Notes under the pieces: generated by a model
Databases searched by the model: none
What the model was told of the DNA's origin: nothing
Seen by the model: the letters and a program-made list of their open reading frames with translations, nothing else
Part shown: one piece after another, positions 7,230 to 26,279 of the stretch
Numbering within the stretch: the stretch's first letter is position 1
How the letters are laid out: each line of letters starts with the position of its first letter
Program-made: the position numbers and the translations under genes
Assembly: GCA_016182605.1 (NCBI GenBank)
Contig: JACPGE010000056.1
Span: forward strand, 28,964 to 92,963
DNA: 64,000 nucleotides
Source: Candidatus Hydrogenedentota bacterium
GTDB taxonomy: Bacteria > Hydrogenedentota > Hydrogenedentia > Hydrogenedentales > JAEUWI01
Direction of reading: 5' to 3'

Positions 7230-7601
7230 TCAGCGGCTCCGCCTGCGCGGTCCGCGCCGTGAAGTCCCCCGCCGCTTCTGTTTGCTCGCATTGCGCCGCG
7301 GCTGATCTTCGGGATCCTTTTCCACCGGAGTCTCCGGCTCCAGGTGGCGCGGAAGCACCGCCTTTGCGTTGGCGTCCTGTATCGAATTCAGCGTGTGGCA
7401 CCGGGGACAAGAGGAAAACTTCTCCGCCTCGTCATCGAGATACACGTACGTGCAGATCGCGCACCGCCAGATGAACTGGTTCTTCACCTCGAAATGACGG
7501 CGCTGTTCCTTCACCTCCATGTAGAGCCACAGCATCGTGGCGCCCGCAAGCAGAATCAGGCTGTACACCAGCATCGCCGTGCCCAGGGATATCTCGATCA
7601 C
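7230..7601 (-). CDS. Small membrane protein with CxxC...CxxC zinc ribbon
   Basis: N-terminal TM helix, CAIC...CPRC ribbon, basic C-tail. 4-nt overlap with the upstream tonB-like gene (coupled). Confidence 0.45.
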   Translation of the reverse strand: MIEISLGTAMLVYSLILLAGATMLWLYMEVKEQRRHFEVKNQFIWRCAICTYVYLDDEAEKFSSCPRCHTLNSIQDANAKAVLPRHLEPETPVEKDPEDQPRRNASKQKRRGTSRRGPRRRSR

Positions 7602-8413
7602 GGCGCCTCCTCCACCGCGCGCAGCACCAGTGTGGCGGTTTCAGGCCGGGTGCGCTCGTCGCCCGGTGGCAGCGGCTCGAAACGGTATTGCAGGAGCGTG
7701 AACTGGATCTCTTCCACTATCCCCTGGGGATCCACCGTGGGGCTGAACGTGTCCACAATCCGCCCGATCGCATTTACCTGGAAAACCACCTCGATCGGCA
7801 GCGGAAGCTCGGCCACATCCCGTGCGTCCAGGATATGCATCGGCGGCGCGAAGAGCAATGCACGCGCCGTGCCGCTACGTTCCCAGTCGATCTCGCCCAC
7901 AATGCCCGCGGCAGGACGAATCTTTGTGGTGTCGTCCGTGTCCGATCCCGGCAGCGTTTCATTCGTCCCGCTCAACCGAAGCTCCGCGAGCCGTTCCCCC
8001 ACGCCTTGCAGGCTGCGCGTGAAGCGCGCCCAACTGTCCAGGGGCTCGCCGTCGTAGATCCGGTCAAAACCAGGCTCGTTGCCCGCGTTGCCAAGCCGCA
8101 GCCGGCGCAACTCGCCAAAGGCCATGGTGGGCAGTTCAATGTCCGGCAGGGTTCCACCCAAGGTCAGGCCCTGTCCCAGCACGGGGAAAAGCGCAGGCAG
8201 GCCGCCCGATTCCGGCGGCGCGAGGGGCGCGGGCTCCCCGGCCGCCGCAACGATATGAAAATCCAGGTATTCCAAATCCCGGCGTGGAAAGTAGATCACA
8301 ATCTTGAAGAGCGTGACCATGGAAAGGTGTAGCAAGAGCGACGCGAGGAGCGCCCCATGTATCAGGGAGGGCCTCCAGCGTGGCCGGAAGCGATGTGTGC
8401 TGGAATTGCTCAT
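7598..8413 (-). CDS. TonB-like protein (N-terminal TM anchor, Pro-rich linker, C-terminal domain), putative
   Basis: Architecture and position immediately downstream of exbB-exbD. No strong sequence motif recognised. Confidence 0.35.
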   Translation of the reverse strand: MSNSSTHRFRPRWRPSLIHGALLASLLLHLSMVTLFKIVIYFPRRDLEYLDFHIVAAAGEPAPLAPPESGGLPALFPVLGQGLTLGGTLPDIELPTMAFGELRRLRLGNAGNEPGFDRIYDGEPLDSWARFTRSLQGVGERLAELRLSGTNETLPGSDTDDTTKIRPAAGIVGEIDWERSGTARALLFAPPMHILDARDVAELPLPIEVVFQVNAIGRIVDTFSPTVDPQGIVEEIQFTLLQYRFEPLPPGDERTRPETATLVLRAVEEAP

Positions 8414-8442
8414 GTTGTTGCGGCCTGCCCGTTGGCCGGGGC

Positions 8443-8880
8443 TCAGGGGCTCTCCGGCTGTTGTGCGGCAATCGAGTAGCTCTGAATGCCCACGGCGTTC
8501 GCGTATCCCATGACCTTGACGAAGCGCTCCACGGGAACACGGCCATCCGAGCGAATTTGCACGGCCGCGCCCGGGTTGGCGCCGTGCAGATCGGTCAGGC
8601 GCCGCACCAATTCCGCCCAGTCCACAATCTCCGCCTCATCCACGTAGATCTTGCCCAAGCCGTCCGGTCCGCCCGGATCGAAAGACAACGTTATGGACAG
8701 GTCTTTCTGTTCGAACTGGGCCGGGCCTTCCGCCTGGGGAACATCAATCGGGATCGATGTGCGCACGGTGAAGGTGGAGGAGAGCATGAAAAACGCAAGC
8801 AACAGCAGCACCACGTCGACCAGCGGCGTCATGTCGAGCCGGGCGGCAACCTTCAGCTTGTTGTTGCGTCTGAATTTCAT
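8443..8880 (-). CDS. exbD: Biopolymer transport protein ExbD/TolR
   Basis: MTPLVDVVLLLLAFFM single TM segment and ExbD-type periplasmic domain. 4-nt overlap with exbB. Confidence 0.8.
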   Translation of the reverse strand: MKFRRNNKLKVAARLDMTPLVDVVLLLLAFFMLSSTFTVRTSIPIDVPQAEGPAQFEQKDLSITLSFDPGGPDGLGKIYVDEAEIVDWAELVRRLTDLHGANPGAAVQIRSDGRVPVERFVKVMGYANAVGIQSYSIAAQQPESP

Positions 8881-9521
8881 CGGCGATCACTATCGTCCTG
8901 GTATTTCGTCAGCAGTTCGACCAGTTCCGAAGCGCTGATCTCCATGTCGTTCACCATGCTTTCCACGCGCGTTACAAAATAATTGTAAAGCACATACACC
9001 GGAATCGCGACGATCAGTCCAAAGGCCGTGGTAAGCAGGGCATTGCCGATGCCGTTCGCAAGGTCGGCCGGGTTCACCTGGCCGGCGCGATTCTTGATCT
9101 CGGAGAAGGCCAGGATCATGCCCTGCACCGTCCCCAGCAGCCCGAGCAGCGGCGCAATATTCGCGCAGGTCGCCAGCGCGGAGAGATAGCGCTCCAACTG
9201 CGGCACTTCCAGATGCCCCGCATTCTCTATGGCCTCGCGCATCTCCGCCTTGCTCTCCTCGTGCTTGAGTATGCCCGCCTTCAGAATGCGCGCCACCGGC
9301 GCATTCGTCTCGTCGCAGAGCTGCACGGCCTGCTGTATCCGGTGCTGCCGCAATACCTGGCGCATGGCTTCCATGAAGTCGCGCGTGTCGATGGTGGCGC
9401 GGCGCAGAAAGAAATACCGCTCGATGGCGATGCCCAGGGCCGCAATACTGCACAGCAGAATCGGCCACATGATGATGCCGCCGTCTTCCATTACATTATA
9501 GGCGTCTTGAAAAGTGCTCAC
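8877..9521 (-). CDS. exbB: MotA/TolQ/ExbB proton-channel protein
   Basis: Three TM helices. PLLGLLGTVQGMIxAF motif typical of ExbB/TolQ. Confidence 0.85.
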   Translation of the reverse strand: MSTFQDAYNVMEDGGIIMWPILLCSIAALGIAIERYFFLRRATIDTRDFMEAMRQVLRQHRIQQAVQLCDETNAPVARILKAGILKHEESKAEMREAIENAGHLEVPQLERYLSALATCANIAPLLGLLGTVQGMILAFSEIKNRAGQVNPADLANGIGNALLTTAFGLIVAIPVYVLYNYFVTRVESMVNDMEISASELVELLTKYQDDSDRR

Positions 9522-9608
9522 GGAATCCGTCCCTGCCCTTTGGCTGCGGCCCCCGATCGGTATGGGCGCGTGTGTGCGCCGCCGGCCGTCGGCCCCGTTT
9601 GCGTGCGG

Positions 9609-10475
9609 TTACTGGCTCACGAGGGTGCCCAGCCCCTCTTTCGTGAAGATCTCGAGCAACAGGCTGTGCGGTACGCGCCCGTCGATGATGTGCGTCTTGC
9701 GCACACCGTAGCCCAGCGCCTTGATGCAGGCCTCCACCTTGGGAATCATGCCGCCCGCTATGATGCCGTCTTGGCGCAGCTTGGCCACCTCCGTGGAGCG
9801 TACCTGATGGATCAGGGTGCCTGGATCGTTCACGTCGCGCAACAGGCCCGGCGTATCGGTGAGGAAAACCAGCTTCTCCGCCCGCAGCGCCGCGGCCACC
9901 TCGCCGGCTGCCGTGTCCGCGTTGATGTTCCAGGTGCCGCCCGTGCCGTCCGTTGCCACCGGCGCGATCACGGGGATCATGCCGGCCTGCGTCAGCACGT
10001 CGACCACTTTCCGGTGCACCCCGGTGATGGCGCCCACGTGCCCGATGTCGGCCCCGTCTTCCGTCTCCAGCTTGCGCGCGAAGAGGAGATTGCCGTCCTT
10101 GCCGCTCAGCCCCACGGCATCCGCGCCCGCAAGATTGAGCAGGCGCACGATGTCCTTGTTGATCCTGCCCGCCAGCACCATTTCCACCACTTCTATGGTC
10201 GCGTCGTCCGTGATGCGCAGCCCCTGCGGTGAAAACTGCGCCTGTATGTCCAGGCGTTTCAGCGTTGCATTGATCGCTGGGCCGCCCCCGTGCACGATGA
10301 CCGGATTCATCCCCACGTATTTCATCAATACGATGTCGTCTGCCGTGCTCTTCCGCAATTCGGGGTCGAGCATCGCCGCGCCGCCATACTTGATCACCAC
10401 CGTCTTACCCACAAAATCGCGGATATATGGCAGGGCCTCAATGAGTGTTTGGGCCTTTGAGATGAATTCCTGCAT
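9609..10475 (-). CDS. argB: Acetylglutamate kinase
   Basis: LIEALPYIRDFVGKTVVIKYGGAAM and VHGGGP amino-acid kinase motifs. 288 aa. Confidence 0.9.
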   Translation of the reverse strand: MQEFISKAQTLIEALPYIRDFVGKTVVIKYGGAAMLDPELRKSTADDIVLMKYVGMNPVIVHGGGPAINATLKRLDIQAQFSPQGLRITDDATIEVVEMVLAGRINKDIVRLLNLAGADAVGLSGKDGNLLFARKLETEDGADIGHVGAITGVHRKVVDVLTQAGMIPVIAPVATDGTGGTWNINADTAAGEVAAALRAEKLVFLTDTPGLLRDVNDPGTLIHQVRSTEVAKLRQDGIIAGGMIPKVEACIKALGYGVRKTHIIDGRVPHSLLLEIFTKEGLGTLVSQ

Positions 10476-10610: not shown

Positions 10611-12242
10611 TCAGGCCGGCCTCGTCGCGGTTCCGGAATGGCGGCGTTTCCAGCGCCGTGCAATGAGTGTAATTGTGGCGCCCGCAACGGCCATCACCAC
10701 CGCGGTGCCCCACAAGAGGTACTGGCGGCGCTGCTCGATATAATCGCCAAACACGCGCCGCACCATGACCTGCTGCACCTGCATGGCCGGGGTGTCTGGC
10801 GCGTCCGCCTGCGTCGCGCGCCAGTATTGGATCATCCCCAATTGTTCGCGCCAGCCAATCGTGCCGTCGCCGTCCTTGTCGAAGCGCTTGTTCATCTCCG
10901 CGATCAGAATCGGGCGCAGTATCTCCACGTCCACCGTTTCGAACTCGCGTATCCGGTAATCGTTGATCGCCTGGCGGATTAGCGGCGTGTCCTCGGGCCG
11001 CACCGCGATGACAGAGAGACCGCAGCCCGCCATCTCGTCCGTGGACTGGGGGCCCCAGCCGATTCGCTGCGGCGGCTGAAACGGGTTGCGCGGATTGGCC
11101 GCCGAATTGTCATATACGAATCGCAACTGGATCTCGGTGCCCCTGGGGAGAAGCACCGGCTCTTCGAAGATGTATTGCTCCTGCCACGCGAAATCCCAAT
11201 CCAATACCCGAATGAGGACCTGCTCCCGGTTATCGGGGAACTTGGCGACCGCCTCAATCTCCTTGCAGATGTAATGCGCATGCGGGTTAATCTTGATCGC
11301 CTCCACATCGCAGGGCACGGTATAGCTGTGTTCCACGACAAAGTTTGCCTCGCCCGCGGGCACCTCCAGCCCTGTGGTCATCCCAAACATGGCCGGAATC
11401 GGCAGGGCAACAAGCTCGCGGGTCGGCGGCTCTTTCGTAAGGAAGAGGCCCATGCGCGACTTCTCCGATTCGGCCTTGCCGCTGGGGTGGAAGTGCGTCT
11501 CGATCACCATGAGGGCATCGTCGGGAATGGCGATGGCCACGCCCTCCGGAAGCCACGTGGGCAGCGCGCCCACGGCATAGCCGCCAATGCGCTCATCGGC
11601 AAAACGTTGCTCCATGCCGCCGAAGCCCGGACCGGCATCCATCGCATCCATGCGCAGGGCCACACCGCTCCGGTCCAGATCGAAAAGACTGTGATGCACC
11701 ACGCTCGGCGCACTCGGTTGAAACTCGATCCCTTTCACCCACGTGCCCTCGGGAAGTTCCGGGATTTGCATGACAAAATTGTGGTAGATATCCGGACCGT
11801 CCGCGGGTACGGGATACGCTTCCGGCATCTCCAGGATGATATCCGGGATGCCAAGGCGCCAGCCCTCCGGAAAGACCGGCGGCACAGGCAAATCGGCGGG
11901 GTTGCCCTCGTTGCGGCCCTGCGCCACCCACGCCGCAATCGTCGCGATCTCATCGGGGCTCAACCCGCGCTCATCGCGCAGCGCTGTATGGCCGCGTTCC
12001 GCCTTCCAGGGCGGCATGAAACCGTTGCCCGTGACTTCCTCGATCAGGCGCGCACGCTTCTTCACGTCGTCGTACGTGAGGAAGTTGAATGGCGTGCCCA
12101 TGCCCGGCCGGTGACATTCCAGACAATGCCGGTTGACGAGCGGGGCAATGTCCTTCGTATAGGTCACCGGCGTGGCAATCTGCGCCCACGCGGCCGGCGC
12201 CGTGGCCAGCGTGGCGATCAGCATTCGGGTCATCGTGGTCAT
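10611..12242 (-). CDS. Fusion protein: planctomycete-type cytochrome c (PSCyt1, CxxCH) + copper type II ascorbate-dependent monooxygenase-like (PHM/DBH-like) domain + C-terminal TM anchor
   Basis: Start trimmed to an ATG (MTTMTRMLIATLATAPAAWA signal peptide) preceded by GGAGAA. NRHCLECH heme motif. VVHHSLF, THFHPSG, NPHAHYI and EMAGCG mirror the CuH (HH..H) / CuM (HxH..M) ligand order. C-terminal hydrophobic helix + RRWKRR. Confidence 0.6.
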   Translation of the reverse strand: MTTMTRMLIATLATAPAAWAQIATPVTYTKDIAPLVNRHCLECHRPGMGTPFNFLTYDDVKKRARLIEEVTGNGFMPPWKAERGHTALRDERGLSPDEIATIAAWVAQGRNEGNPADLPVPPVFPEGWRLGIPDIILEMPEAYPVPADGPDIYHNFVMQIPELPEGTWVKGIEFQPSAPSVVHHSLFDLDRSGVALRMDAMDAGPGFGGMEQRFADERIGGYAVGALPTWLPEGVAIAIPDDALMVIETHFHPSGKAESEKSRMGLFLTKEPPTRELVALPIPAMFGMTTGLEVPAGEANFVVEHSYTVPCDVEAIKINPHAHYICKEIEAVAKFPDNREQVLIRVLDWDFAWQEQYIFEEPVLLPRGTEIQLRFVYDNSAANPRNPFQPPQRIGWGPQSTDEMAGCGLSVIAVRPEDTPLIRQAINDYRIREFETVDVEILRPILIAEMNKRFDKDGDGTIGWREQLGMIQYWRATQADAPDTPAMQVQQVMVRRVFGDYIEQRRQYLLWGTAVVMAVAGATITLIARRWKRRHSGTATRPA

Positions 12243-12898
12243 GGGTTCTCCTTCAACGTTTCCGGCTGCGATGCATCGGGCGCGCCGTCCATAGGGATGA
12301 AGCAGCCAATACACGGCGTCTCGTTTTGCGGCAGGGTCTTGCCCTGAAGCGCGGCCTCGATGGCATCCCGCAGATCGTGCTGCGCCGCCTCATTCCGGTA
12401 TTTGCCAAAATCCACATAGCGGTCGTCGATGCGTCCACGATAATAGATCCGGCCCGCCCGATCCAGCACTACCGCCTCCGGGGTCACAGTTGCCCCCACG
12501 GCGCGCGCACAGGCGTGGACCGGGTCCAGAAGCGCCGCCGGCTGCAACGCATAGTCGCGGGTGTGTGCCCGGATCGCCTCCACACCAACCGCGGGATCGC
12601 TGTACACGCGGTATAGTAGCACCTTCTTTTTCGAGAACGCCTCATGGAGCCGGTTAATCTCCGGGGCATAGCGGTTCACCACGGGGCAGTCCGGGGCGAC
12701 AAAGAGGAGTACCGTAAGCGGGTGATCGGGGCTCGGCACGCAGACCGGCTCGCCCGAAGCACGGTCGAGATGGAGCGGGGCCAGGCTTCCCAGCATCGCC
12801 GCGCCTGCCGCATCGCGGCCTGCGGCCGGGTCTTCTCCGCGTGCCAGCGCGCACACGGAGAGTAGGAGCACTGCGCCAAGCCAAAATCTGCGGTTCAT
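12239..12898 (-). CDS. Secreted thioredoxin-fold (redoxin-like) protein
   Basis: Start at internal ATG (MNRRFWLGAVLLLSVCALA signal peptide). LLFVAPDCPVVNRY active-site-like segment. Stop overlaps the ATG of the downstream cyt c/Cu-monooxygenase gene (ATGA overlap). Confidence 0.4.
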   Translation of the reverse strand: MNRRFWLGAVLLLSVCALARGEDPAAGRDAAGAAMLGSLAPLHLDRASGEPVCVPSPDHPLTVLLFVAPDCPVVNRYAPEINRLHEAFSKKKVLLYRVYSDPAVGVEAIRAHTRDYALQPAALLDPVHACARAVGATVTPEAVVLDRAGRIYYRGRIDDRYVDFGKYRNEAAQHDLRDAIEAALQGKTLPQNETPCIGCFIPMDGAPDASQPETLKENP

Positions 12899-13046: not shown

Positions 13047-13232
13047 ATGGAAGAGTGGTACAGCTTCACCTGTCCCTGCTGCTGGCAGGACGTCTCCATG
13101 CTGCTCGATCTTTCCGCGGGAGGCCAGGCCTACGTGCAGGATTGCGAGGCGTGCTGCAATCCTCTGGACATCAGCTTCGAAGTGGAGAACGGCCACGCCA
13201 CCAACTTCACCGTCTCCGCCGCACAGGAGTAG
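13047..13232 (+). CDS. Cysteine-rich CPxCG-like small zinc-finger protein
   Basis: MEEWYSFTCPCCWQDVSMLLDLSAGGQAYVQDCEACCNPLDISFEV: two Cys pairs, ~61 aa. Start trimmed from track ORF 12951. Confidence 0.45.
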   Translation: MEEWYSFTCPCCWQDVSMLLDLSAGGQAYVQDCEACCNPLDISFEVENGHATNFTVSAAQE

Positions 13233-13457: not shown

Positions 13458-14084
13458 TCAAGTGGTACTGGGCACATACACCACGAAACTGCCCCGGTTC
13501 CGATCATAGTAGCGCATGTGACGGTGCTCCAGGTCGAAGATCCAGCCGTGGACCTTCGCAATGCCCTCCGCCTCGGCACGTTGAACCGAGGGGTAGGCGC
13601 GCACGTGTTCCAGTTGCAGCAGCACGTTCTCTTCCACCAGCGCGTCGTGCAGCTCTTCACCGCAGAGCCCTTTGTGCTGCACACTGTCGAAGGCGGGCAG
13701 GGCGTGTGTCATCCAGTCCGCCGTGTTGCCGGGGCAGCCGTTCTCCAGCCCCCGCTCCAGCGCGCGCAGACCGCCACAGTCGGTATGACCGCAAACAATA
13801 ATGCGCTTTACCTTCAGCACGTCCAGTGCGTAGTCGATGGCGGCTGCAAGCACCGATTCGCCCGAGCCCGGCGGCGGCACAATGTTCGCGATCACGCGGA
13901 CCACGAAAAGATCGCCCGGGCGCGCCCCCGTGAGGGATTCCGCGAGCACGCGCGAGTCGGAGCAACCAATAAACATGACGTCGGGCGACTGCCCCTCGCG
14001 ACCCAATTGGGCCAGCCGCTCCTTCTCCTGCTCAAAAAAGGCTTCCCTGGACGCACTCGACTCGGCAAGCAATCGCTCGGACAA
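13458..14084 (-). CDS. can: Beta-class carbonic anhydrase
   Basis: CSDSR ... HTDCGG zinc-ligand signatures. 208 aa. Confidence 0.85.
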   Translation of the reverse strand: MSERLLAESSASREAFFEQEKERLAQLGREGQSPDVMFIGCSDSRVLAESLTGARPGDLFVVRVIANIVPPPGSGESVLAAAIDYALDVLKVKRIIVCGHTDCGGLRALERGLENGCPGNTADWMTHALPAFDSVQHKGLCGEELHDALVEENVLLQLEHVRAYPSVQRAEAEGIAKVHGWIFDLEHRHMRYYDRNRGSFVVYVPSTT

Positions 14085-14239: not shown

Positions 14240-16255
14240 CTAGTTCTTGGACCGCTTACGCAGGGTCATGGCGCCCGCGGCGCCCAGTGCGCTCATCAGC
14301 ACACCGGCTCCGAAGAGCCCCGTGACCGGCAAGAGGGGGTTGCCTTCCCAGAACGGGCCGAAGTCGCCGGAAGCCGCCACGATGAACTCGGGCTGGCCGC
14401 CGCCCTGGGCAATCACGGCGTTATACGCGCCGAGGTTGTCCAAGCCGTCTTCATTGTAGTCGCCGTCGCCCGCGAAGGGTTCGTCGCCATCCTTCGCCGG
14501 GCCGCCCGTGCCGTAGATCGTCAGGTTCAGCGGATTGATCGTGATCTGCTGCGAGAGGATCGCGGCGCGGTCTGCCTGGAAGTCGGCCAGGAAGGTGCCG
14601 CCAAAGCCGGGAAGCTGGGATTCGATGAAGTTCCACGTCGCGGCATTCGCCGTCGAGATGTCGGCCGCTGCCGTCGGCGTGTAGATCGTGTCGATTTCCG
14701 CCACGCCGTCAAACGCGCCGGAAACCGCCGCCTGCATCTGCGTGCTCAAGCCGAGCAGCGCCGCCGATATCTCCGGCGCGTCCTGCAGGTCCAATGCCGC
14801 TTGCAGCACGTTGTTCACCGCATTCACCTGTGTTGCGCCGCCGTTGATGGCGAAGTTGTTGTTGAAGAAGTTGATGATGAACGCAATGCCTTCCCACGCT
14901 TCTTCAACCGCCGCAACATCCGTCGCGAGATCTTCCAGAATCGCCAGGTTGCCATTGAACTCTTCGAGCACCGTCGCCTTGTCCACGGTCTTGCCTTCCA
15001 CGCCGCCTTCGCACAGCGCGTAGGAGAGCAGCGCAATCTGGAAGGTATCCGGAATGCCGTCCGCATCCGCATCGGCGCCGCCAAGCGCGCCCGCCGCCGC
15101 GGCAAGCTGGGCCTGAAGCGTGTCGTCAAACGAACAGATGTCGAACCACTCGGGTGCGCGCACTTCAATCTCCAGCGAACCCGTGCCGCCGCCGCTGCTT
15201 TCCGCTTCGATAGCGACCGTGCCCGCGCTTACGCCGGTAACCAGGCCGTTTCCATCCACCGTGGCGATGGCATCATCGGCAGAACTCCACGTAAACGTGG
15301 CTTCGGTGTCTTCGGAATCGATGGCGAAGAGTTGCAAGGTATCGCCAATCAAGACGCTTTCCTCGGCGGCCTGCACCGTCACGCCCGAAGGCAGTTCCGG
15401 TGCTACCTGATTCAACGCGGTGCCCGTGATAACAATCGGGCCGAGTTCCAGCGTTGCAAGTCCGCGAGCCTTGATCGTGAAGATGTCGGGATTCGTCGCG
15501 CCAGCAACCGCCTGATCGACCGGAAGCGCCGTGCCGCCATTGCCCACCAATTGAAAGGCCCGCGCCGGCTCGTCGCCGTTCACGCCGTAATAGGTCGTGA
15601 TTTCCCGGGTCGTCGCGTTCCACACCTGGCGGATCTTGATCGTCGTGACCACCTTGCCATCGGTCCAGGCGTCGCCCGCGTCGTCGCCCGCAACCCAAGT
15701 CGACTCGTCGTTCGGCGATTCACTCGGCGCGCCGCCGGCCCCGGCAGAAAAGCTCTGCCCGCGCACTACCCACTGCCGCCCCGCTACAGGCGCCGTCGAA
15801 GGCCACTCGATCCCATAACGGAGCTTGCCGCCGTCCACGGTTGTATTCGCTTCGGTGCCAATGTAGCAATACGTGTTGGAGGTGGACTCCGTAGACGCCG
15901 CCGGGACATCCGGACCTTCGCTCACGCCGCCTTGCTGCGTGCTCGCGTCTGGCACGGTCCACTCCGCGTTCAACTCCCAATCCTGGGTATCATCGAACTG
16001 GATGGCTTGTCCCTGATCGTTCTGGAGGACAACGAAGTTGGTCCCGCCGACCGTTGGACTCACGTTGACGTGATAGGTCCCGTCGCCCAGATCTTCGTCC
16101 AGAATCTGGCCGTCCACAAGCGTATTCCACCCCAGCGGCAAGGATCCTGGCCCTGCCGCCCAGCGGAACTCCCCAGTGTCGGCCTGGGCCCACCCTTGCC
16201 CCAGGAACAGGGCAACGGCAGACAAGCCCGTTGCTATCGTGCGAATGCTTTTCAT
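14240..16255 (-). CDS. Secreted Gly/Ala/Thr-rich protein with bacterial Ig-like (Big_2) domain and C-terminal LPVTG + hydrophobic + RKRSKN sorting-signal-like tail
   Basis: Start at ATG (MKSIRTIATGLSAVALFLGQGWAQA signal peptide). Big_2-like segment VTLQAAEESVLIGDTLQLFAIDS...VTGVSAGTVAIEAE. C-terminus LPVTGLFGAGVLMSALGAAGAMTLRKRSKN. Confidence 0.55.
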   Translation of the reverse strand: MKSIRTIATGLSAVALFLGQGWAQADTGEFRWAAGPGSLPLGWNTLVDGQILDEDLGDGTYHVNVSPTVGGTNFVVLQNDQGQAIQFDDTQDWELNAEWTVPDASTQQGGVSEGPDVPAASTESTSNTYCYIGTEANTTVDGGKLRYGIEWPSTAPVAGRQWVVRGQSFSAGAGGAPSESPNDESTWVAGDDAGDAWTDGKVVTTIKIRQVWNATTREITTYYGVNGDEPARAFQLVGNGGTALPVDQAVAGATNPDIFTIKARGLATLELGPIVITGTALNQVAPELPSGVTVQAAEESVLIGDTLQLFAIDSEDTEATFTWSSADDAIATVDGNGLVTGVSAGTVAIEAESSGGGTGSLEIEVRAPEWFDICSFDDTLQAQLAAAAGALGGADADADGIPDTFQIALLSYALCEGGVEGKTVDKATVLEEFNGNLAILEDLATDVAAVEEAWEGIAFIINFFNNNFAINGGATQVNAVNNVLQAALDLQDAPEISAALLGLSTQMQAAVSGAFDGVAEIDTIYTPTAAADISTANAATWNFIESQLPGFGGTFLADFQADRAAILSQQITINPLNLTIYGTGGPAKDGDEPFAGDGDYNEDGLDNLGAYNAVIAQGGGQPEFIVAASGDFGPFWEGNPLLPVTGLFGAGVLMSALGAAGAMTLRKRSKN

Positions 16256-16439
16256 GCTGAGATCACTCCCCTTAGGTTTTTCAAAAGAACCCATAATGCC
16301 ATTTCCCTACGACGCCCACGAACACTTCAGAAGGCGCCGCGTCTGCAGCCTCAGACGACGTGCACAACTGCCACGTACGAATATACGTGCTTACAAAAGC
16401 AAATTCGGTGCCCGCTATGGATGTGTATGCCTAAGCCAT

Positions 16440-17000: not shown

Positions 17001-18068
17001 ATGTTTCGGGAGAGAGCGGGCGTATTTTCCGGGGGGAGAACCGTAACACGGGTGTACCGGGCTGTCGAAGGGCGGCCCGGCGCGTGGTGTGTCCAAGGCT
17101 TTACGCTAATCGAACTGCTCGTCGTGATCGCGATCGTCAGTCTGCTCAGTTCCATTCTTTTGCCGGTGCTGGCCCGCTCGCGCGAGGCGGCCCGGCGCGC
17201 GGTATGCCAGAACAATTTGCGCCAGTTTGGCATCATCTTCAGCCTCTATACCGATGAGAGCAAGGGCAATCTTTATCCGCCCTTGCAGAAGTGGCACCTC
17301 AACGGCACGCCGACGCTGCTGGGGGTGCGCGGCGCGATGCTCTATCCCGAGTATTGGAACACACCGAACATCATCTTGTGTCCCTCAGACTCGCGGATAA
17401 AGGAGTTTGCGGGCGAGTTCGATCAGGATCTGAACAAGGCCGTGCGCGACGCCTTCGAAGCCGGGGCCAGCCCCGATTGCCTGGAAGTCTTGCTTTCCCT
17501 GACGATTTCCTACGCCTACATCGGTTACGCGGTCAAGACTTCGTCGCAACTCAAAGATGTGGTCATGTCCAAGATCAACCTGGCCTTCGAGGAGCAGACC
17601 GACGGCAACGTGCAATTAATCGGCGCGGCGGAGATGGAGGAGCAGGGTTGTCAGCGCCGCTCCTTCGCAGCCTATGGCGCGCTCGGCACCTACGATATCC
17701 CGGCGATACCGGGTATTCAAGACGGGCTTGGGCAGTTGGACGACGATGGCGGCCCCATGCCCGAGGGCTACAAGCTGCTCGCTCAGGGCGTGGAGCGCTT
17801 CTTCATCACCGACATCAACAGCCCCGCCCGCTCCGCCCGGGCGGAGAGCCAGATCCCCGTGATGTTTGACACGTGGGCGCAACAGGTGCCGATCTTCGGC
17901 GGCGTCGCGCGTTTCAATCACGTTCCTGGCGGCTCCAACGTGCTCTACCTGGACGGGCACGTCGAGTTCGTGAATCTGTCCAGCCGTTTCCCCGTGGCCA
18001 ATGCGCCCGCGGGAACCTATGGCCAGGATCTCTCGTTCACCATGGCGCTGACTTCGGGTACGAATTGA
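17001..18068 (+). CDS. DUF1559 / H-X9-DG protein with prepilin-type N-terminal cleavage/methylation domain
   Basis: [43 protein letters not shown] pseudopilin signature. C-terminal DGHVEFVN (H-X9-DG-like). Confidence 0.8.
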
Positions 18069-21842: not shown

Positions 21843-23324
21843 TCAGGCAATGATCTCCCGGATGGGCTCCGCACCCTCGACCCCAACCAGCTTCTCATCC
21901 AGGCCGTTGTAAAAATAACTGAGGCCGTTCGGATCCAAACCCATTTGTTGAAGCACCGTCGCGTGGAGATGTTTCACATGATACGGCTTCTCTACGGCCT
22001 CGCTGCCAAGCTCGTCCGTCTGCCCGATACTCATGCCGCCCTTGATCCCGCCGCCCGCCATCCACATCGTGAAGCCCGCCGAGTTGTGATCGCGGCCCGT
22101 GCCCTTCTCGTATTCCGCCGTCGGCTGCCGCCCAAACTCGCCCCCCCAGATGATCAGCGTCTCGTCGAGCAGGCCCCGCTGCTTCAGATCCTTGATCAGC
22201 CCTGCAATCGGCCGATCCGTGTTCCCCGCATGGTAATCGTGATTCGTCTTCAGATCGCCGTGGGCATCCCAGTTGTCGTCGTTGTGGGCGCCGCCGGAAT
22301 AGATCTGAATAAAGCGCACGCCCCGCTCCACCAGCCGGCGCGCAAGCAGGCACTTGCGCCCGAAATCCTCCGTGCGTTCCTGGTCGATGCCGTAGAGACG
22401 CTTTATGTGTTCGGGCTCGTCGTCGATGTTCACCGTCTCCGGCGCGGTCATCTGCATGCGGTAGGCCAGCTCATAATTCGCGATGCGCGCCGCCAGATCC
22501 GTGTTGTCCACGCGCGTGGCCAGGTGGCCCTCATTGAAATGCCGCAGGTGATCCAGCAGCACGCGCTGTTCCGCCGCGCTCATCTCCGCATGCGAACGCA
22601 GGTTGAGGATCGGCGATCCCTTCGGCTTGAAGACCGTCGCCTCATAGCTCGCCGGCATGAAGCCGCTGCTCCAGTTTTTCGCGCCGCTGATCGGGCCCCC
22701 GGTCTTGTCCAGCATCACCACATAGCCGGGCAGATCCTCGTTCACCGTCCCCAGGCCATAATTCACCCACGATCCCAGCGACGGGCTGCCGCTGAGGATC
22801 CGGCCAGAGTTCATCATCAGCATGGCCGAACCGTGAATGGGGGAATCTGCCGTCATGGATTTGAGGAACGCAATATCGTCAACACAGGTGGAAAGATGCG
22901 GGAAAAGCTCCGAGACCCACTGTCCGGACTGTCCGTACTGCTTGAAACTCCACTTGGGGCCGACGATGCGCCCTTCATTCTTCTTGCCGCCGCGCCCGAA
23001 GGTCTTCACCTCCACCGTCTTTCCGTCCAGCCGGTAGAGTTCCGGCTTGTAGTCAAAGGTGTCCACGTGGCTCGGTCCGCCGTACATGAAGAGAAAGATA
23101 ACGCTCTTCGCCACCGGCGGGAGATGACCGGCCCGGGGGGCAAGCGGATTCTTGAACGGGGTGAGGCCGTCCGCGCAGACCGTTTGCGATCCGAAGAAGC
23201 GGTCTTCTGCCAGCAGGCCCGTGAGCGCGAGCGAGGTAAAGCCGCCGCCCACGGTGCGCAGGAACTCCCGGCGCGTGCGGCCGCAGAACGTGTTCTTCGG
23301 TTTAGGGGTGTTGTTGGAAGCCAT
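21843..23324 (-). CDS. DUF1501 (sulfatase-like fold) protein with Tat signal
   Basis: RREFLRTVGGGFTSLALTG twin-arginine signal. FMYGGPSHVDTFDYKP and GGEFGRQP, typical of DUF1501. Confidence 0.85.
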   Translation of the reverse strand: MASNNTPKPKNTFCGRTRREFLRTVGGGFTSLALTGLLAEDRFFGSQTVCADGLTPFKNPLAPRAGHLPPVAKSVIFLFMYGGPSHVDTFDYKPELYRLDGKTVEVKTFGRGGKKNEGRIVGPKWSFKQYGQSGQWVSELFPHLSTCVDDIAFLKSMTADSPIHGSAMLMMNSGRILSGSPSLGSWVNYGLGTVNEDLPGYVVMLDKTGGPISGAKNWSSGFMPASYEATVFKPKGSPILNLRSHAEMSAAEQRVLLDHLRHFNEGHLATRVDNTDLAARIANYELAYRMQMTAPETVNIDDEPEHIKRLYGIDQERTEDFGRKCLLARRLVERGVRFIQIYSGGAHNDDNWDAHGDLKTNHDYHAGNTDRPIAGLIKDLKQRGLLDETLIIWGGEFGRQPTAEYEKGTGRDHNSAGFTMWMAGGGIKGGMSIGQTDELGSEAVEKPYHVKHLHATVLQQMGLDPNGLSYFYNGLDEKLVGVEGAEPIREIIA

Positions 23325-23339
23325 GGTGCATCACTCCGT

Positions 23340-26279
23340 TCAATCCAGAAACACAAATTCGTTCAGGTTCAACGCCAGCAGGCAAAAACGCTCCAGTGCC
23401 GTCTCCGCGTCAAGTTGGTGCTGCTGTGCCAACTCCGAGATGAGTTGCAGCCCCCGCGCCGTCTCCTCCGGGCGCGGCGCGCGGCCCGTCGCAAGATGCA
23501 GGCCCCGCGTAACACACGCTTCCGTGTCGCTGCCCGCTTCCGCACGCAGGCGCTGCGCAAATTGCGCGGCCTCTTTGAAGATAAACTCGCTGTTGATCAT
23601 GTTGAGCGCTTGGCCCGGTTGTGTGGTGACGAAGCGCACAGGACACGTGTCGTCCGTGTCCGCCAGGTCGTAGTCGGCCAGCAGCGGCATGAGGAGCGAC
23701 CGCTTCACATGTATGTACAGACTCCGCCGCGTGTATTCCTCGGGCGGCGAGTCCTTCCAGACCGAGCCCGGCATGGACGACGTAGCAAGCACTTCGGCGG
23801 GCATGGGCGGATAGACACTCGGGCCGCCCATCTTGAGATTGATCGATCCGTTCACCGCCAGGATGGAATCGCGCAATTCCTCCGCTGTCAGCCGCCGCAT
23901 GTTGAAGCGCCAGAAGAGGTGGTTCATCGGATCCTTTTCCAGGCCCGCGCTGTTGCCCTCCGCGCTCATCTGGTAGGTGCTCGAAAGCATCATCAACCGG
24001 TGCATATCCTTGATGCGCCAGCCGCCCGCAACGAACTCCGTTGCGATCCAGTCCAGGAGTTCCGGGTGCGTGGGCTGGATGCCCATTCGCCCGAAATTGT
24101 TGCTTGATCGCACAATGCCGCGGCCAAAATGATATTGCCAGATCCGGTTCGCCATGACGCGCGCCGTCAAGGGATTCTCCGCGCTGGCAAGCCACGACGC
24201 CAGCACACGGCGTCGGCCCGTCGTGGGTGCGCCCGGTTTGGGCTCCGGGATCACCGGTTCTGGCGGATTCAATATTTCCGGGTAGCCCGGGGTCACTTCC
24301 GATCCCGGCACATGCGGGTTGCCGCGCACCAGCATATGCGTCGCACGCGGCACGCCCCCCGTCTCCTGTACCGCCGTGGCCCAGCGCCCTTCCACCGCGA
24401 TCGCCTCGGCCTCGGCCAGGAGCCGCGCATTCTTCTTGTAATTGAAATACCACTCTGCCCCCATCAGTTGCCGGGCCTCGTCCCGAATCGTCTTGTCCAG
24501 ATCGGCTGGAGGAACTGCGTCTCGCGCCACGCTCAGCGCCCGCTCCGGCATATCCGATCCGCTCCAATACAGTTCCAGCACCGGCATCTCGGAGCGGTTG
24601 ATATATTCCAGGCGGAATGCGCGCAGCCCTTCGCCGAGCGTTATCATCGCCGTGGATTCCGGCAATGTCGCGGTGTCCGCCTCAACGGCAAGTTGCCCGT
24701 CAATGCTCAGGCGTGCCGCCGCCGTGGCGCGCAGGCGGAACGTATATTCGCCGGATCGCGGCGTTTGCAACTGACCCGCGTACACCAGCCCAATCGCGTC
24801 GTCGCGGCTCGCCGGGCCCAGCGTCACGAAGTTGCGCGGCAAGCCGCCCGTGGCCTCCGGCTTGAAGCCGCTGAAGTCGGGGATCGCGTCCCACGTGTTG
24901 CGGTAGAACTCGTAGCGCAGATTCGAAAGCCCCGATTGCATTGCTGCGCCACCGGCAGCGTTGCCCGAATGCGCGTCACGTTGGAGAATGAACGCCTCGC
25001 GCAGGGCGAACTGCTCCGCGCGCAGGGCCTCCAGTTTCTCGTTCTTCGCCCGCATCGCCGCATCGAAACCCGCCTGCTCTTCTGGAGTGAGAATGCTGGA
25101 GAGCACGGAGTTCGCATCGTTGCGCTTCATCTCCGTGAGGTTGTTGAAGAACGCCAGGAAGCGGTAGTAGTCACGCTGGGGAATTGGGTCGATCTTGTGA
25201 TCGTGGCAGCGCGCGCAGCCCATCGTGGTGCCCAGAAAAACCTGCCCCGCGGTATCCACCACATTGTCCAGCACATCGTATCGCGCCAGTTCCGGGTCCG
25301 CAGGCTCATCATCCCAGATGCCCAGCCGGTGGAAGCCCGTCGCCGTGATCGTATCCGGCGTCACCGTGTCCAGTTCGTCGCCCGCTATCTGCTCGCGGAT
25401 AAACTGATCGTAGGGCATGTCCTGATTGAACGCGTTCACCACATAGTCGCGGTAGCGCCACATGTACGGCTTCTCGCCATCGCGCTCATACCCGTTGGTT
25501 TCGGCATAACCCACGAGATCCAGCCAGTGACGCCCCCACTTCTCGCCGTAGTGCGGCGAAGCCAGCAACTGCTCGACAAGTTGGGCATAGGCGTCGGGCC
25601 GCGCGTCGTTCACAAACGCCTCCACTTGTTCCGGAGTGGGGGGGAGCCCAAGGAGATCGTAGTAGACTCTGCGCACGAGCGCACCACGGCTCGCAGGGGG
25701 CGCCGGCGTGAGGCCGGCCTTTTCCAGGCCATGCAGTACAAACGCATCCACGGGATTGCGCACCCATCCCGCGTCTTGCACCTCGGGCACTGCGGGGCGC
25801 TTCACCGGCTGGTAGGCCCAATACTGGCGCGTTAGTTCGTTGATCTCGTTGAGGGCAGGCTCGGCCGGCGCCGCGGGCACGCCCTCCTCGTCATACGGCG
25901 CGCCAAGAAGCACCCACTGCGTGAGCAGGGCAATCTGGTCATCGGGCAGCTTTCCCGCTGGCGGCATTTCGTGGTGCTCGTCCTTGTGACTCAGCATCGC
26001 GAGCAGCACACTGGCATCAGGATCGTCAAAATCGACCGCCGGACCGCGCGCGGCGCCCTTGATCAGCCCGGCCCGTGTCGTAAGCGTGAAATCCCCCTTG
26101 ACCTTCTCGCCGCCGCCATGGCACTTGAAGCAGTGCTCCGCCAGGATCGGTTTGATGGAGTCCCGGTAGAAAACGAGGGGGTCTTCCTGCGCCGAGGCCG
26201 CGCCTCCAGCCATGGCAATGGAGATTAGCAACGCTCCAAACAGGCCCTTACTTACTGCCACCCGCAAACTGCCCATCAA
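23340..26279 (-). CDS. PSCyt1/PSCyt2/PSD1 (DUF1549/DUF1553) planctomycete cytochrome-c-domain protein
   Basis: N-terminal signal peptide. AEHCFKCHGGGEKVKG heme motif (PSCyt1). Central ARCHDHKIDP (DUF1549-like). Canonical partner of the downstream DUF1501 gene. Confidence 0.85.
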   Translation of the reverse strand: MMGSLRVAVSKGLFGALLISIAMAGGAASAQEDPLVFYRDSIKPILAEHCFKCHGGGEKVKGDFTLTTRAGLIKGAARGPAVDFDDPDASVLLAMLSHKDEHHEMPPAGKLPDDQIALLTQWVLLGAPYDEEGVPAAPAEPALNEINELTRQYWAYQPVKRPAVPEVQDAGWVRNPVDAFVLHGLEKAGLTPAPPASRGALVRRVYYDLLGLPPTPEQVEAFVNDARPDAYAQLVEQLLASPHYGEKWGRHWLDLVGYAETNGYERDGEKPYMWRYRDYVVNAFNQDMPYDQFIREQIAGDELDTVTPDTITATGFHRLGIWDDEPADPELARYDVLDNVVDTAGQVFLGTTMGCARCHDHKIDPIPQRDYYRFLAFFNNLTEMKRNDANSVLSSILTPEEQAGFDAAMRAKNEKLEALRAEQFALREAFILQRDAHSGNAAGGAAMQSGLSNLRYEFYRNTWDAIPDFSGFKPEATGGLPRNFVTLGPASRDDAIGLVYAGQLQTPRSGEYTFRLRATAAARLSIDGQLAVEADTATLPESTAMITLGEGLRAFRLEYINRSEMPVLELYWSGSDMPERALSVARDAVPPADLDKTIRDEARQLMGAEWYFNYKKNARLLAEAEAIAVEGRWATAVQETGGVPRATHMLVRGNPHVPGSEVTPGYPEILNPPEPVIPEPKPGAPTTGRRRVLASWLASAENPLTARVMANRIWQYHFGRGIVRSSNNFGRMGIQPTHPELLDWIATEFVAGGWRIKDMHRLMMLSSTYQMSAEGNSAGLEKDPMNHLFWRFNMRRLTAEELRDSILAVNGSINLKMGGPSVYPPMPAEVLATSSMPGSVWKDSPPEEYTRRSLYIHVKRSLLMPLLADYDLADTDDTCPVRFVTTQPGQALNMINSEFIFKEAAQFAQRLRAEAGSDTEACVTRGLHLATGRAPRPEETARGLQLISELAQQHQLDAETALERFCLLALNLNEFVFLD

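Follow-up and report, generated by a model that had tools for sequence, protein, structure and literature searches.

What could a secreted thioredoxin-fold protein do beside a protein that carries a haem-binding motif followed by histidines and a methionine spaced as in copper monooxygenases? The question is raised by two genes in a 64,000-nucleotide stretch of a Candidatus Hydrogenedentota genome (GenBank assembly GCA_016182605.1, contig JACPGE010000056.1, positions 28,964 to 92,963), called the window below; all coordinates are those of this whole 64-kb stretch, and both genes lie on the minus strand (-). Open reading frame calls place the redoxin gene at 12239..12898 (-) (219 amino acids, start MNRRF) and the gene of the cytochrome c/PHM-like copper enzyme, hereafter the enzyme, at 10611..12242 (-) (543 amino acids, ATG at 12242). 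We propose that the pair probably forms a self-contained module, in which a PHM/DBH-type copper monooxygenase, periplasmic and tethered to the membrane by its C-terminus, with a fused cytochrome c as its point of electron entry, works together with the redoxin.

We then asked whether the central region of the enzyme really holds the two copper sites that the spacing of its HH, HxH and HxH...M motifs had suggested in a first-pass annotation of this DNA. The motifs are HH at residues 183-184, HFH at 250-252, HAH at 321-323 and DEM at 402-404. In an alignment of 35 sequences of about 45% identity (A1), C40, C43, H44, M76, H183, H184, H250, H321, H323 and M404 are invariant, and across 349 aligned family domains each of these ten metal-binding residues is at least 99% conserved, the CuH and CuM ligands being kept in 347-348 of the 349. 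H252 is conserved in just 74% of these domains, and we therefore take H250 as the CuH ligand of the HFH motif. When the A1 profile was run against the PDB, the top match was rat PHM (E 7e-4), in a register that places H183/H184 on PHM H107/H108 and H250 on PHM H172 for the CuH-type site, and H321/H323 on PHM H242/H244 and M404 of the DEM motif on PHM M314 for the CuM-type site. The corresponding codons lie at 11696-11691 (H183/H184), 11495-11493 (H250), 11282-11274 (H321/H323) and 11033-11031 (M404). A comparison of A1 with the PHM core by hhalign, for which the PHM sequence was taken in part from the PDB profile alignment, extended over 225 columns (E 2e-5); it aligned all six ligands and set the invariant Q354 (11183-11181) on PHM Gln272. 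The suggested likeness of spacing was thus borne out by profile and hhalign alike, and the histidines and methionine fall on true copper-ligand columns.

The fold agrees with this register. AlphaFold2, run with A1, returned a model with pLDDT 90.7 and pTM 0.84, in which an N-terminal helical haem domain is followed by beta-sandwiches at about residues 134-272 and 273-415 and by a long helical C-terminus. The first sandwich (11427..11843 (-), residues 134-272, delimited by alignment to PHM and by the fold match) would hold the CuH-type site, and the second (10998..11426 (-), residues 273-415, delimited by alignment to PHM) the CuM-type site. Searching with the predicted structure in Foldseek, the top 31 matches were all PHM or human DBH (E 4e-13 to 6e-9). 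The two consecutive beta-sandwich (jelly-roll) domains by which the PHM/DBH superfamily is recognised are both present, and structure prediction, which had been named as a check on the central domain, assigned it to the PHM/DBH fold and not to an unrelated one. Judged from alignment and predicted fold, the enzyme is a member of the PHM/DBH superfamily with an intact two-copper ligand set, and by analogy it would bind copper and carry out O2-dependent C-H hydroxylation.

The N-terminal part of the enzyme would provide a haem. The protein begins with MTTMTRMLIATLATAPAAWA/Q, which resembles a Sec signal peptide with a probable cleavage at AWA/Q; the putative signal peptide occupies residues 1-21 (12180..12242 (-)), as judged from the sequence and from a low-pLDDT N-terminal helix in the model. 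Residues 22-112 (11907..12179 (-)) form a monohaem cytochrome c domain with the haem motif CLECH at residues 40-44 (12125-12111) and a probable axial ligand, Met76, in an MPPW motif (12017-12015). Both elements of a class I-like monohaem c-type cytochrome, the CxxCH (C40/C43/H44) and the distal Met ligand (M76), are present. In Pfam, the isolated domain matches Cytochrome_CBB3 (8.4e-6, 26.5 bits, just under the cut-off of 27) and further Haem_bd, PccH and Cytochrom_C, and the closest solved structure is PccH of Geobacter sulfurreducens (PDB 4rlr); PccH is a free-standing cytochrome, whereas the haem domain of the present protein is joined to a copper enzyme as its N-terminal part. The haem domain had initially been read as PSCyt1, an assignment that we abandon: the PSCyt1 model (PF07635) gives no match at E<=10 on the isolated domain and none in the 35 relatives, though it works elsewhere in the same window, where it detects a true PSCyt1 domain (23340-26279, 9.6e-13). 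The haem domain and this true PSCyt1 domain share weak similarity by tblastn (E 0.024). A 979-amino acid protein with PSCyt1, PSCyt2 (DUF1549), PA14 and PSD1 (DUF1553) domains, followed by a 493-amino acid DUF1501 protein, is encoded at 21843-26279 (-); genes for a PSCyt1-PSD1 protein and a DUF1501 protein form an uncharacterised pair that is classic for Planctomycetes and related phyla.

Beyond the copper core, residues 416-504 (10731..10997 (-)) are helical in the AlphaFold2 model and contain a candidate EF-hand loop, DKDGDGTIGWRE, at residues 455-466 (10880-10845), which fits D-x-D-x-D-G-x-I-x-x-x-E exactly. The Pfam EF-hand_1 model scores this loop at E 0.004 and 17 bits (cut-off 25.4), and reaches 1e-10 to 1e-13 in relatives. 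The last segment (10611..10730 (-)) comprises a transmembrane helix at about residues 508-528, located by hydropathy and by AlphaFold2, a basic tail and the stop codon. The C-terminal membrane helix had been proposed before, and two observations uphold it: the only strongly hydrophobic 19-mer of the enzyme is 509-527, with a hydropathy peak of 2.02 and RRWKRRH immediately after it, and the model shows an unbroken helix over 485-536. The basic, presumably cytoplasmic tail is RRWKRRHSGTATRPA, and a C-terminal anchor is common to about 14 of the 35 close homologues. Taken with the signal peptide, the transmembrane helix and the basic tail suggest that the enzyme has a type I topology, its catalytic part lying in the periplasm.

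The redoxin and enzyme genes meet at a putative translational-coupling junction. There (12239..12253 (-)), direct reading of the sequence gives a Shine-Dalgarno sequence, AAGGAG (12253-12248), 5 nt 5' of the enzyme start, and an ATGA overlap at 12242-12239, in which the redoxin TGA overlaps the enzyme ATG; the overlap is displayed in CCCATGACC (12245-12237). The ATGA had been pointed out in the earlier reading, and it is confirmed here together with both open reading frames. Among NCBI entries, a 'redoxin domain-containing protein' of a Candidatus Hydrogenedentes metagenome-assembled genome matches the redoxin at 100% identity. On a public contig that carries this identical redoxin, an independent gene call yields the same pair of products (219 and 543 amino acids), with no Pfam family recorded for the longer one. 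The 4-nt gene overlap is found again in many related loci. A scan of the locus for promoters and terminators found one weak promoter-like site 5' of the redoxin gene and no terminator.

Is this coupling a peculiarity of one genome or a property of the family? We compared 80 related loci from species-representative genomes, 57 of which are well flanked, that is, with at least 1.2 kb on both sides. A homologous redoxin is adjacent on the same strand in 57 of the 80 loci, and in 43 (75%) of those that are well flanked. Its position varies, upstream of the enzyme gene in 22 loci and downstream in 33. When open reading frames within 4 kb were clustered across the 80 loci, the redoxin alone recurred, the next cluster being found in 8 loci, and gene context therefore offers no clue to the substrate. 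Moreover, of 149 representative clusters, 30 (20%) unite redoxin and enzyme in a single fusion protein, the redoxin being N-terminal in 17 and C-terminal in 13. Because the gene order is variable and fusion occurs at either end, we regard these patterns as strong evidence for a direct functional, probably physical, partnership between redoxin and enzyme; the dedicated redoxin partner surmised from this single locus thus has counterparts across the family. Other C-terminal extensions occur in 74 more representatives: most of those sampled are TPR repeats, one is a PD40 propeller and one protein joins redoxin, enzyme and an FGE-sulfatase domain (P0366). Among the longer proteins, P0251 (1251 amino acids) appears to be a tandem duplication of redoxin plus enzyme, and P0241 (1064 amino acids) apparently contains two enzyme units with EF-hands.

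The redoxin itself lacks the defining motifs of several better-known types. It begins with a putative signal peptide, MNRRFWLGAVLLLSVCALARG (residues 1-21, 12836..12898 (-), judged from the sequence), and matches the Pfam families AhpC-TSA (3.4e-8, 33.9 bits, gathering score 26) and Redoxin (3.3e-7, 30.6 bits, gathering score 26.6). Its active-site motif, DCPVVN (12674..12691 (-)), was located by alignment of homologues; across 33 homologues from the databases C71, P72 and N75 do not vary, and in 51 redoxins that neighbour the enzyme they are 96-98% conserved. C71 takes the position of the first Cys of a CxxC, the second Cys is absent and an invariant Asn (N75) stands at +4. Other invariant residues are H112, D125, the cis-Pro P140, the motif Y153-x-G-R-I-D-D-R160 and G198-C199. 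The only second cysteine of the protein is C199, about 128 residues past C71; Gly198-Cys199 (12302..12307 (-)) is 100% conserved and falls on the IGC motif that 2cvb, 2ywi and 3u5r share, and C199 is a candidate resolving cysteine. Against the PDB, the redoxin profile matched 2ywi (2e-25), 3u5r and 2cvb (to 1e-17), then ResA/StoA (E 1e-5 to 7e-4), with no Sco protein and no peroxiredoxin at E<=1e-3.

Several assignments could be discarded on these grounds. The redoxin is not a TlpA/ResA/CcmG-type protein with CxxC, its motif being C71-P-V-V with no second Cys, though the cis-Pro P140 is kept; nor is it a Sco1/SenC chaperone, the CxxxC being absent (Asn at +4) and neither Pfam SCO1-SenC at E<=1 nor the PDB profile giving a match. 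Peroxiredoxins are defined by PxxxT/SxxC and by a catalytic Arg that stands in for the cis-Pro of thioredoxins; here the position at -3 from C71 is not a conserved Thr/Ser and P140 is invariant, so that a peroxiredoxin was set aside as well. The closest structures, 2ywi (Geobacillus kaustophilus), 2cvb (Thermus thermophilus) and 3u5r, are structural-genomics proteins of an uncharacterised family, which we take to be the CDD group 'PRX_like1'. They share with the redoxin the single Cys-Pro, Y-(R/H)-G-x-x-D-D and the C-terminal I-G-C, whereas the redoxins linked to the enzyme have their own invariant N75, H112, R156 and R160 and are secreted. In the literature, 2ywi has been discussed as a peroxiredoxin-like protein whose C-terminal Cys may be the resolving one (PMC3091736). 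A literature search on the function of 2cvb, 2ywi and 3u5r found no paper, most subscription journals lying outside its coverage. The nearest characterised relatives by profile are ResA, StoA and TlpA, whose clients are cytochromes c and copper proteins; the cis-Pro is common to both groups, and the redoxin differs from them in having no CxxC motif.

How might such a module work? In PHM and DBH, O2 is bound at CuM and activated there to abstract a hydrogen atom and hydroxylate the substrate, and the second electron comes from CuH. To our knowledge there is no ascorbate in the bacterial periplasm, which makes the fused cytochrome c its obvious replacement: the built-in domain would take the place of ascorbate as one-electron entry point. 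Electrons would pass from haem c (Cys40/Cys43/His44, Met76) to the CuH-type site (His183, His184, His250) and next to the CuM-type site (His321, His323, Met404), where O2 would be activated and a C-H bond of the substrate hydroxylated; the two copper sites would be separate and non-coupled, as in PHM/DBH. The co-translated redoxin would be an obligate partner, with a thioredoxin fold closest to TlpA/ResA in which a nucleophilic Cys71 and the distal Cys199 replace the CxxC. It most likely performs a thiol-disulfide step on the enzyme or on the substrate of the enzyme. This step could consist in keeping the CxxCH cysteines reduced for haem attachment or, alternatively, in supplying reducing equivalents. 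A maturation or reductive-support role is favoured by the fact that ResA-type relatives reduce cytochrome c apoproteins and copper-centre assembly proteins, and that the only invariant Cys of the enzyme are those of the CxxCH, whereas stable fusions occur often enough to speak for participation in each turnover, be it in electron input or on the substrate. A protective role of the peroxiredoxin kind is less likely because the cis-Pro is kept and the peroxiredoxin triad is absent. As to the substrate, the TPR, beta-propeller and FGE-domain fusions of relatives suggest a protein, a peptide or another macromolecule. What the analysis shows is the structure of the genes, the fold, the register and conservation of the ligands, the size of the family, and the linkage and fusions of the two genes; it is by inference that we assign the metal content, the monooxygenase chemistry, the direction in which electrons flow, the role of the redoxin and the periplasmic topology.

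A number of observations weigh against this proposal and have to be set beside it. In Pfam, the 543-amino acid enzyme matches neither Cu2_monooxygen (PF01082) nor Cu2_monoox_C (PF03712) at E<=1. A direct Pfam scan of the enzyme returned weak cytochrome and EF-hand matches only, the NCBIfam scan no match and a single-sequence PDB search EF-hand noise only; the relationship to PHM emerged only through the family profile, hhalign and the predicted structure. The scan with hidden Markov models that had been recommended as a check is in this respect divided, with the Cu2 models and PSCyt1 silent on the enzyme while, at E<=0.01, Cu2_monoox_C matches 9 of the 35 relatives (and Cu2_monooxygen 1). The curated Pfam models of PHM/DBH cover the family marginally or not at all. 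Then there is the substrate pocket: the columns of the PHM substrate-binding residues R240/N316/Y318 hold N319/G406/G408 here and vary among the 349 domains (S/G/Y/F, S/A/D/C and T/S/W, respectively). The disulfide cysteines of PHM are not conserved in the family either, the sole invariant cysteines being C40 and C43 of the CxxCH. With R240/N316/Y318 and the disulfides not conserved, the chemistry could have diverged from that of PHM, and, the carboxylate-binding residues of PHM being absent, the substrate is probably not peptidyl-glycine. An identification as PHM orthologue (EC 1.14.17.3) was ruled out on the same two features. On the side of the partner, about a quarter of the well-flanked loci have no adjacent redoxin, and a ResA-like reductase role is not straightforward for a redoxin without CxxC. 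Finally, the intramolecular electron path from haem to CuH is one that we infer, and our functional assignments derive from sequence, predicted structure and gene linkage.

The same evidence can be arranged differently, and most of the room for disagreement concerns the redoxin. It is conceivable, if on balance doubtful, that the enzyme is a PHM-like monooxygenase and the redoxin a maturation factor only, which reduces the CxxCH in the manner of ResA/CcmG, or reduces or delivers copper in the manner of TlpA/Sco, and has no part in catalysis. Its nearest characterised relatives, ResA and StoA, speak for this, as do the restriction of invariant cysteines in the enzyme to the CxxCH, the JGI label SCO1/SenC on one redoxin homologue and the possibility that the invariant C71, H112 and C199 form a Cys/His/Cys Cu(I) site. 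However, the protein has neither CxxC nor CxxxC and an invariant Asn at +4, Pfam SCO1-SenC is unmatched at E<=1, and a stable fusion in 20% of the representative clusters would be unusual for a factor that acts once per molecule. That linkage, tight and 1:1, with frequent fusion in both orders, would also fit a direct exchange of electrons, as supposed if the module were an oxidase: Cys71/Cys199 of the redoxin would be oxidised, and O2 would receive the electrons by way of haem c and both coppers, for the making of disulfides or the consumption of O2 in the periplasm and with no hydroxylated substrate. Thermodynamically, electron transfer from a thiol by way of cytochrome c and Cu to O2 runs downhill, and the PHM substrate-binding residues are absent. 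Yet the full CuM set (two His and a Met) and the Gln272 equivalent are kept, as in enzymes that hydroxylate C-H bonds, many relatives have TPR or beta-propeller modules instead of the redoxin, which suggests a third-party substrate, and a quarter of the loci have no adjacent redoxin; we consider an oxidase unlikely.

Rather improbable, in our view, is a redoxin that scavenges peroxide and so shields the copper enzyme from the H2O2 of uncoupled turnover. Catalase is added to assays of PHM and DBH, which offers a parallel. The Pfam assignment to AhpC-TSA/Redoxin points the same way, and so does the discussion of 2ywi as a peroxiredoxin-like protein with a C-terminal resolving Cys (PMC3091736), but the invariant cis-Pro P140 occupies the place of the catalytic Arg of peroxiredoxins, the Thr of PxxxTxxC is not conserved and the profile matches ResA/StoA and no peroxiredoxin at E<=1e-3. 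As for the enzyme, one might suppose that its His/Met pattern is fortuitous or its fold unrelated, the protein being a cytochrome c with a beta-rich domain. The failure of Cu2_monooxygen and Cu2_monoox_C to match is what would be expected then; with every ligand in register in hhalign (E 2e-5), every ligand at least 99% conserved in 349 homologues and PHM/DBH matches alone at the top of the Foldseek search, this is hardly credible, and we regard it as refuted.

How does the proposed copper monooxygenase compare with known systems? The predicted catalytic core is homologous to PHM/DBH. PHM, the core of PAM (PDB 1phm, 1sdw, 8dsl), has its CuH and CuM ligands in the same columns, the DEM motif and the Gln272 counterpart of Q354, and PAM shares the type I topology predicted for the enzyme, with the membrane anchor at the C-terminus. 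The enzyme differs from PHM, with which it shares about 18% identity, in its N-terminal cytochrome c, its bacterial periplasmic setting, the lack of a PAL lyase domain, its pairing or fusion with a thioredoxin-fold protein and the loss of R240/N316/Y318 and of the disulfides. In the group of DBH, tyramine beta-monooxygenase and MOXD1 (PDB 4zel), DBH too has an extra N-terminal domain before the core, which is a DOMON domain, whereas that of the enzyme is a cytochrome c with covalent haem; the dimerisation domain of DBH is missing here. Tethered or dedicated haem donors to copper are found in the cytochrome c-fused copper nitrite reductases and in the cytochrome domain of cellobiose dehydrogenase, which reduces LPMOs. 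The design principle is alike, a haem that gives single electrons to copper, but folds and chemistry are unrelated and the likeness is functional only. What sets the module apart from PHM/DBH is the haem c module, the bacterial membrane-anchored periplasmic setting, a substrate that would not be peptidylglycine and a thioredoxin-fold partner of non-CxxC type.

The enzyme is far from isolated. Over 2,700 relatives were retrieved in a homology search, the top one being 55% identical; where they have a name at all, it is 'cytochrome c' or 'hypothetical'. When 1.84 billion representative proteins were searched exhaustively with a profile, 24,589 clusters (at 50% identity) matched at E<=1e-3, 15,077 at E<=1e-10 and 6,015 at E<=1e-30. 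The family is found mainly in Verrucomicrobiota, Planctomycetota, Acidobacteriota and Hydrogenedentota, has at least one cultured host, Lacipirellula limnantheis I41, and carries the cytochrome in essentially all full-length relatives. Full-text literature searches gave no paper on a bacterial cytochrome c-PHM fusion, most subscription journals being outside coverage so that the lack of papers does not amount to proof; nor is any bacterial member mentioned in a 2025 PHM review. The idea that this haem-copper architecture is not among the characterised monooxygenases is to this extent uncontradicted, and the family appears to be unstudied.

PHM and DBH are textbook copper enzymes, ascorbate-dependent and known almost only from eukaryotes, and both the route of electron transfer from CuH to CuM and a possible closure of the domains during turnover are matters of debate. 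A covalent haem beside the same two copper sites would allow electron input to be triggered and followed optically. The interest of the family accordingly rests on its size, on its possible bearing on the origin of PHM/DBH and on a model of the two-copper mechanism with a built-in electron donor. We speculate, with less assurance than for the module itself, that this large bacterial family consists of haem-copper monooxygenases that are the prokaryotic counterpart, and possibly the evolutionary source, of animal PHM/DBH, and that these would draw respiratory-chain electrons through their cytochrome c and, together with the non-CxxC partner, hydroxylate periplasmic proteins, peptides or envelope polymers at the expense of O2. 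The family would then point to an unrecognised O2-dependent hydroxylation chemistry in the bacterial envelope. For the thioredoxin-fold family with three structural-genomics structures, the linkage with the enzyme is a first functional context.

The genes that flank the module are housekeeping genes without evident link to it. Downstream, 7598-10475 (-) encodes ArgB (AA_kinase), ExbB, ExbD and a 271-amino acid TonB-like open reading frame without a Pfam match; upstream, 13458-14084 (-) encodes a beta-class carbonic anhydrase. Between the carbonic anhydrase and redoxin genes, on the strand opposite to both and directly 5' of the redoxin start, lies a gene for a 61-amino acid Cys-rich protein (about 13048-13232 (+)), annotated as Pfam Zn_ribbon_21 on the public contig.

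Farther away, 14240-16294 (-) encodes a 684-amino acid secreted protein with one Big_2 Ig-like domain and no other family match, the C-terminus of which, a hydrophobic segment with a basic tail (…GAGVLMSALGAAGAMTLRKRSKN), resembles a sorting or anchor signal. At 17001-18068 (+) lies the gene of a 355-amino acid protein that has a prepilin-type methylation motif at its N-terminus and the signature of DUF1559 (SBP_bac_10); DUF1559 prepilin-like proteins are typical of Planctomycetes-like genomes. An Rfam scan of the whole window gave no family at gathering score. The GC skew changes sign near 33-34 kb, at the cumulative minimum, and the GC content falls to 0.52-0.54 at 38-42 kb, against about 0.62 elsewhere in the window.

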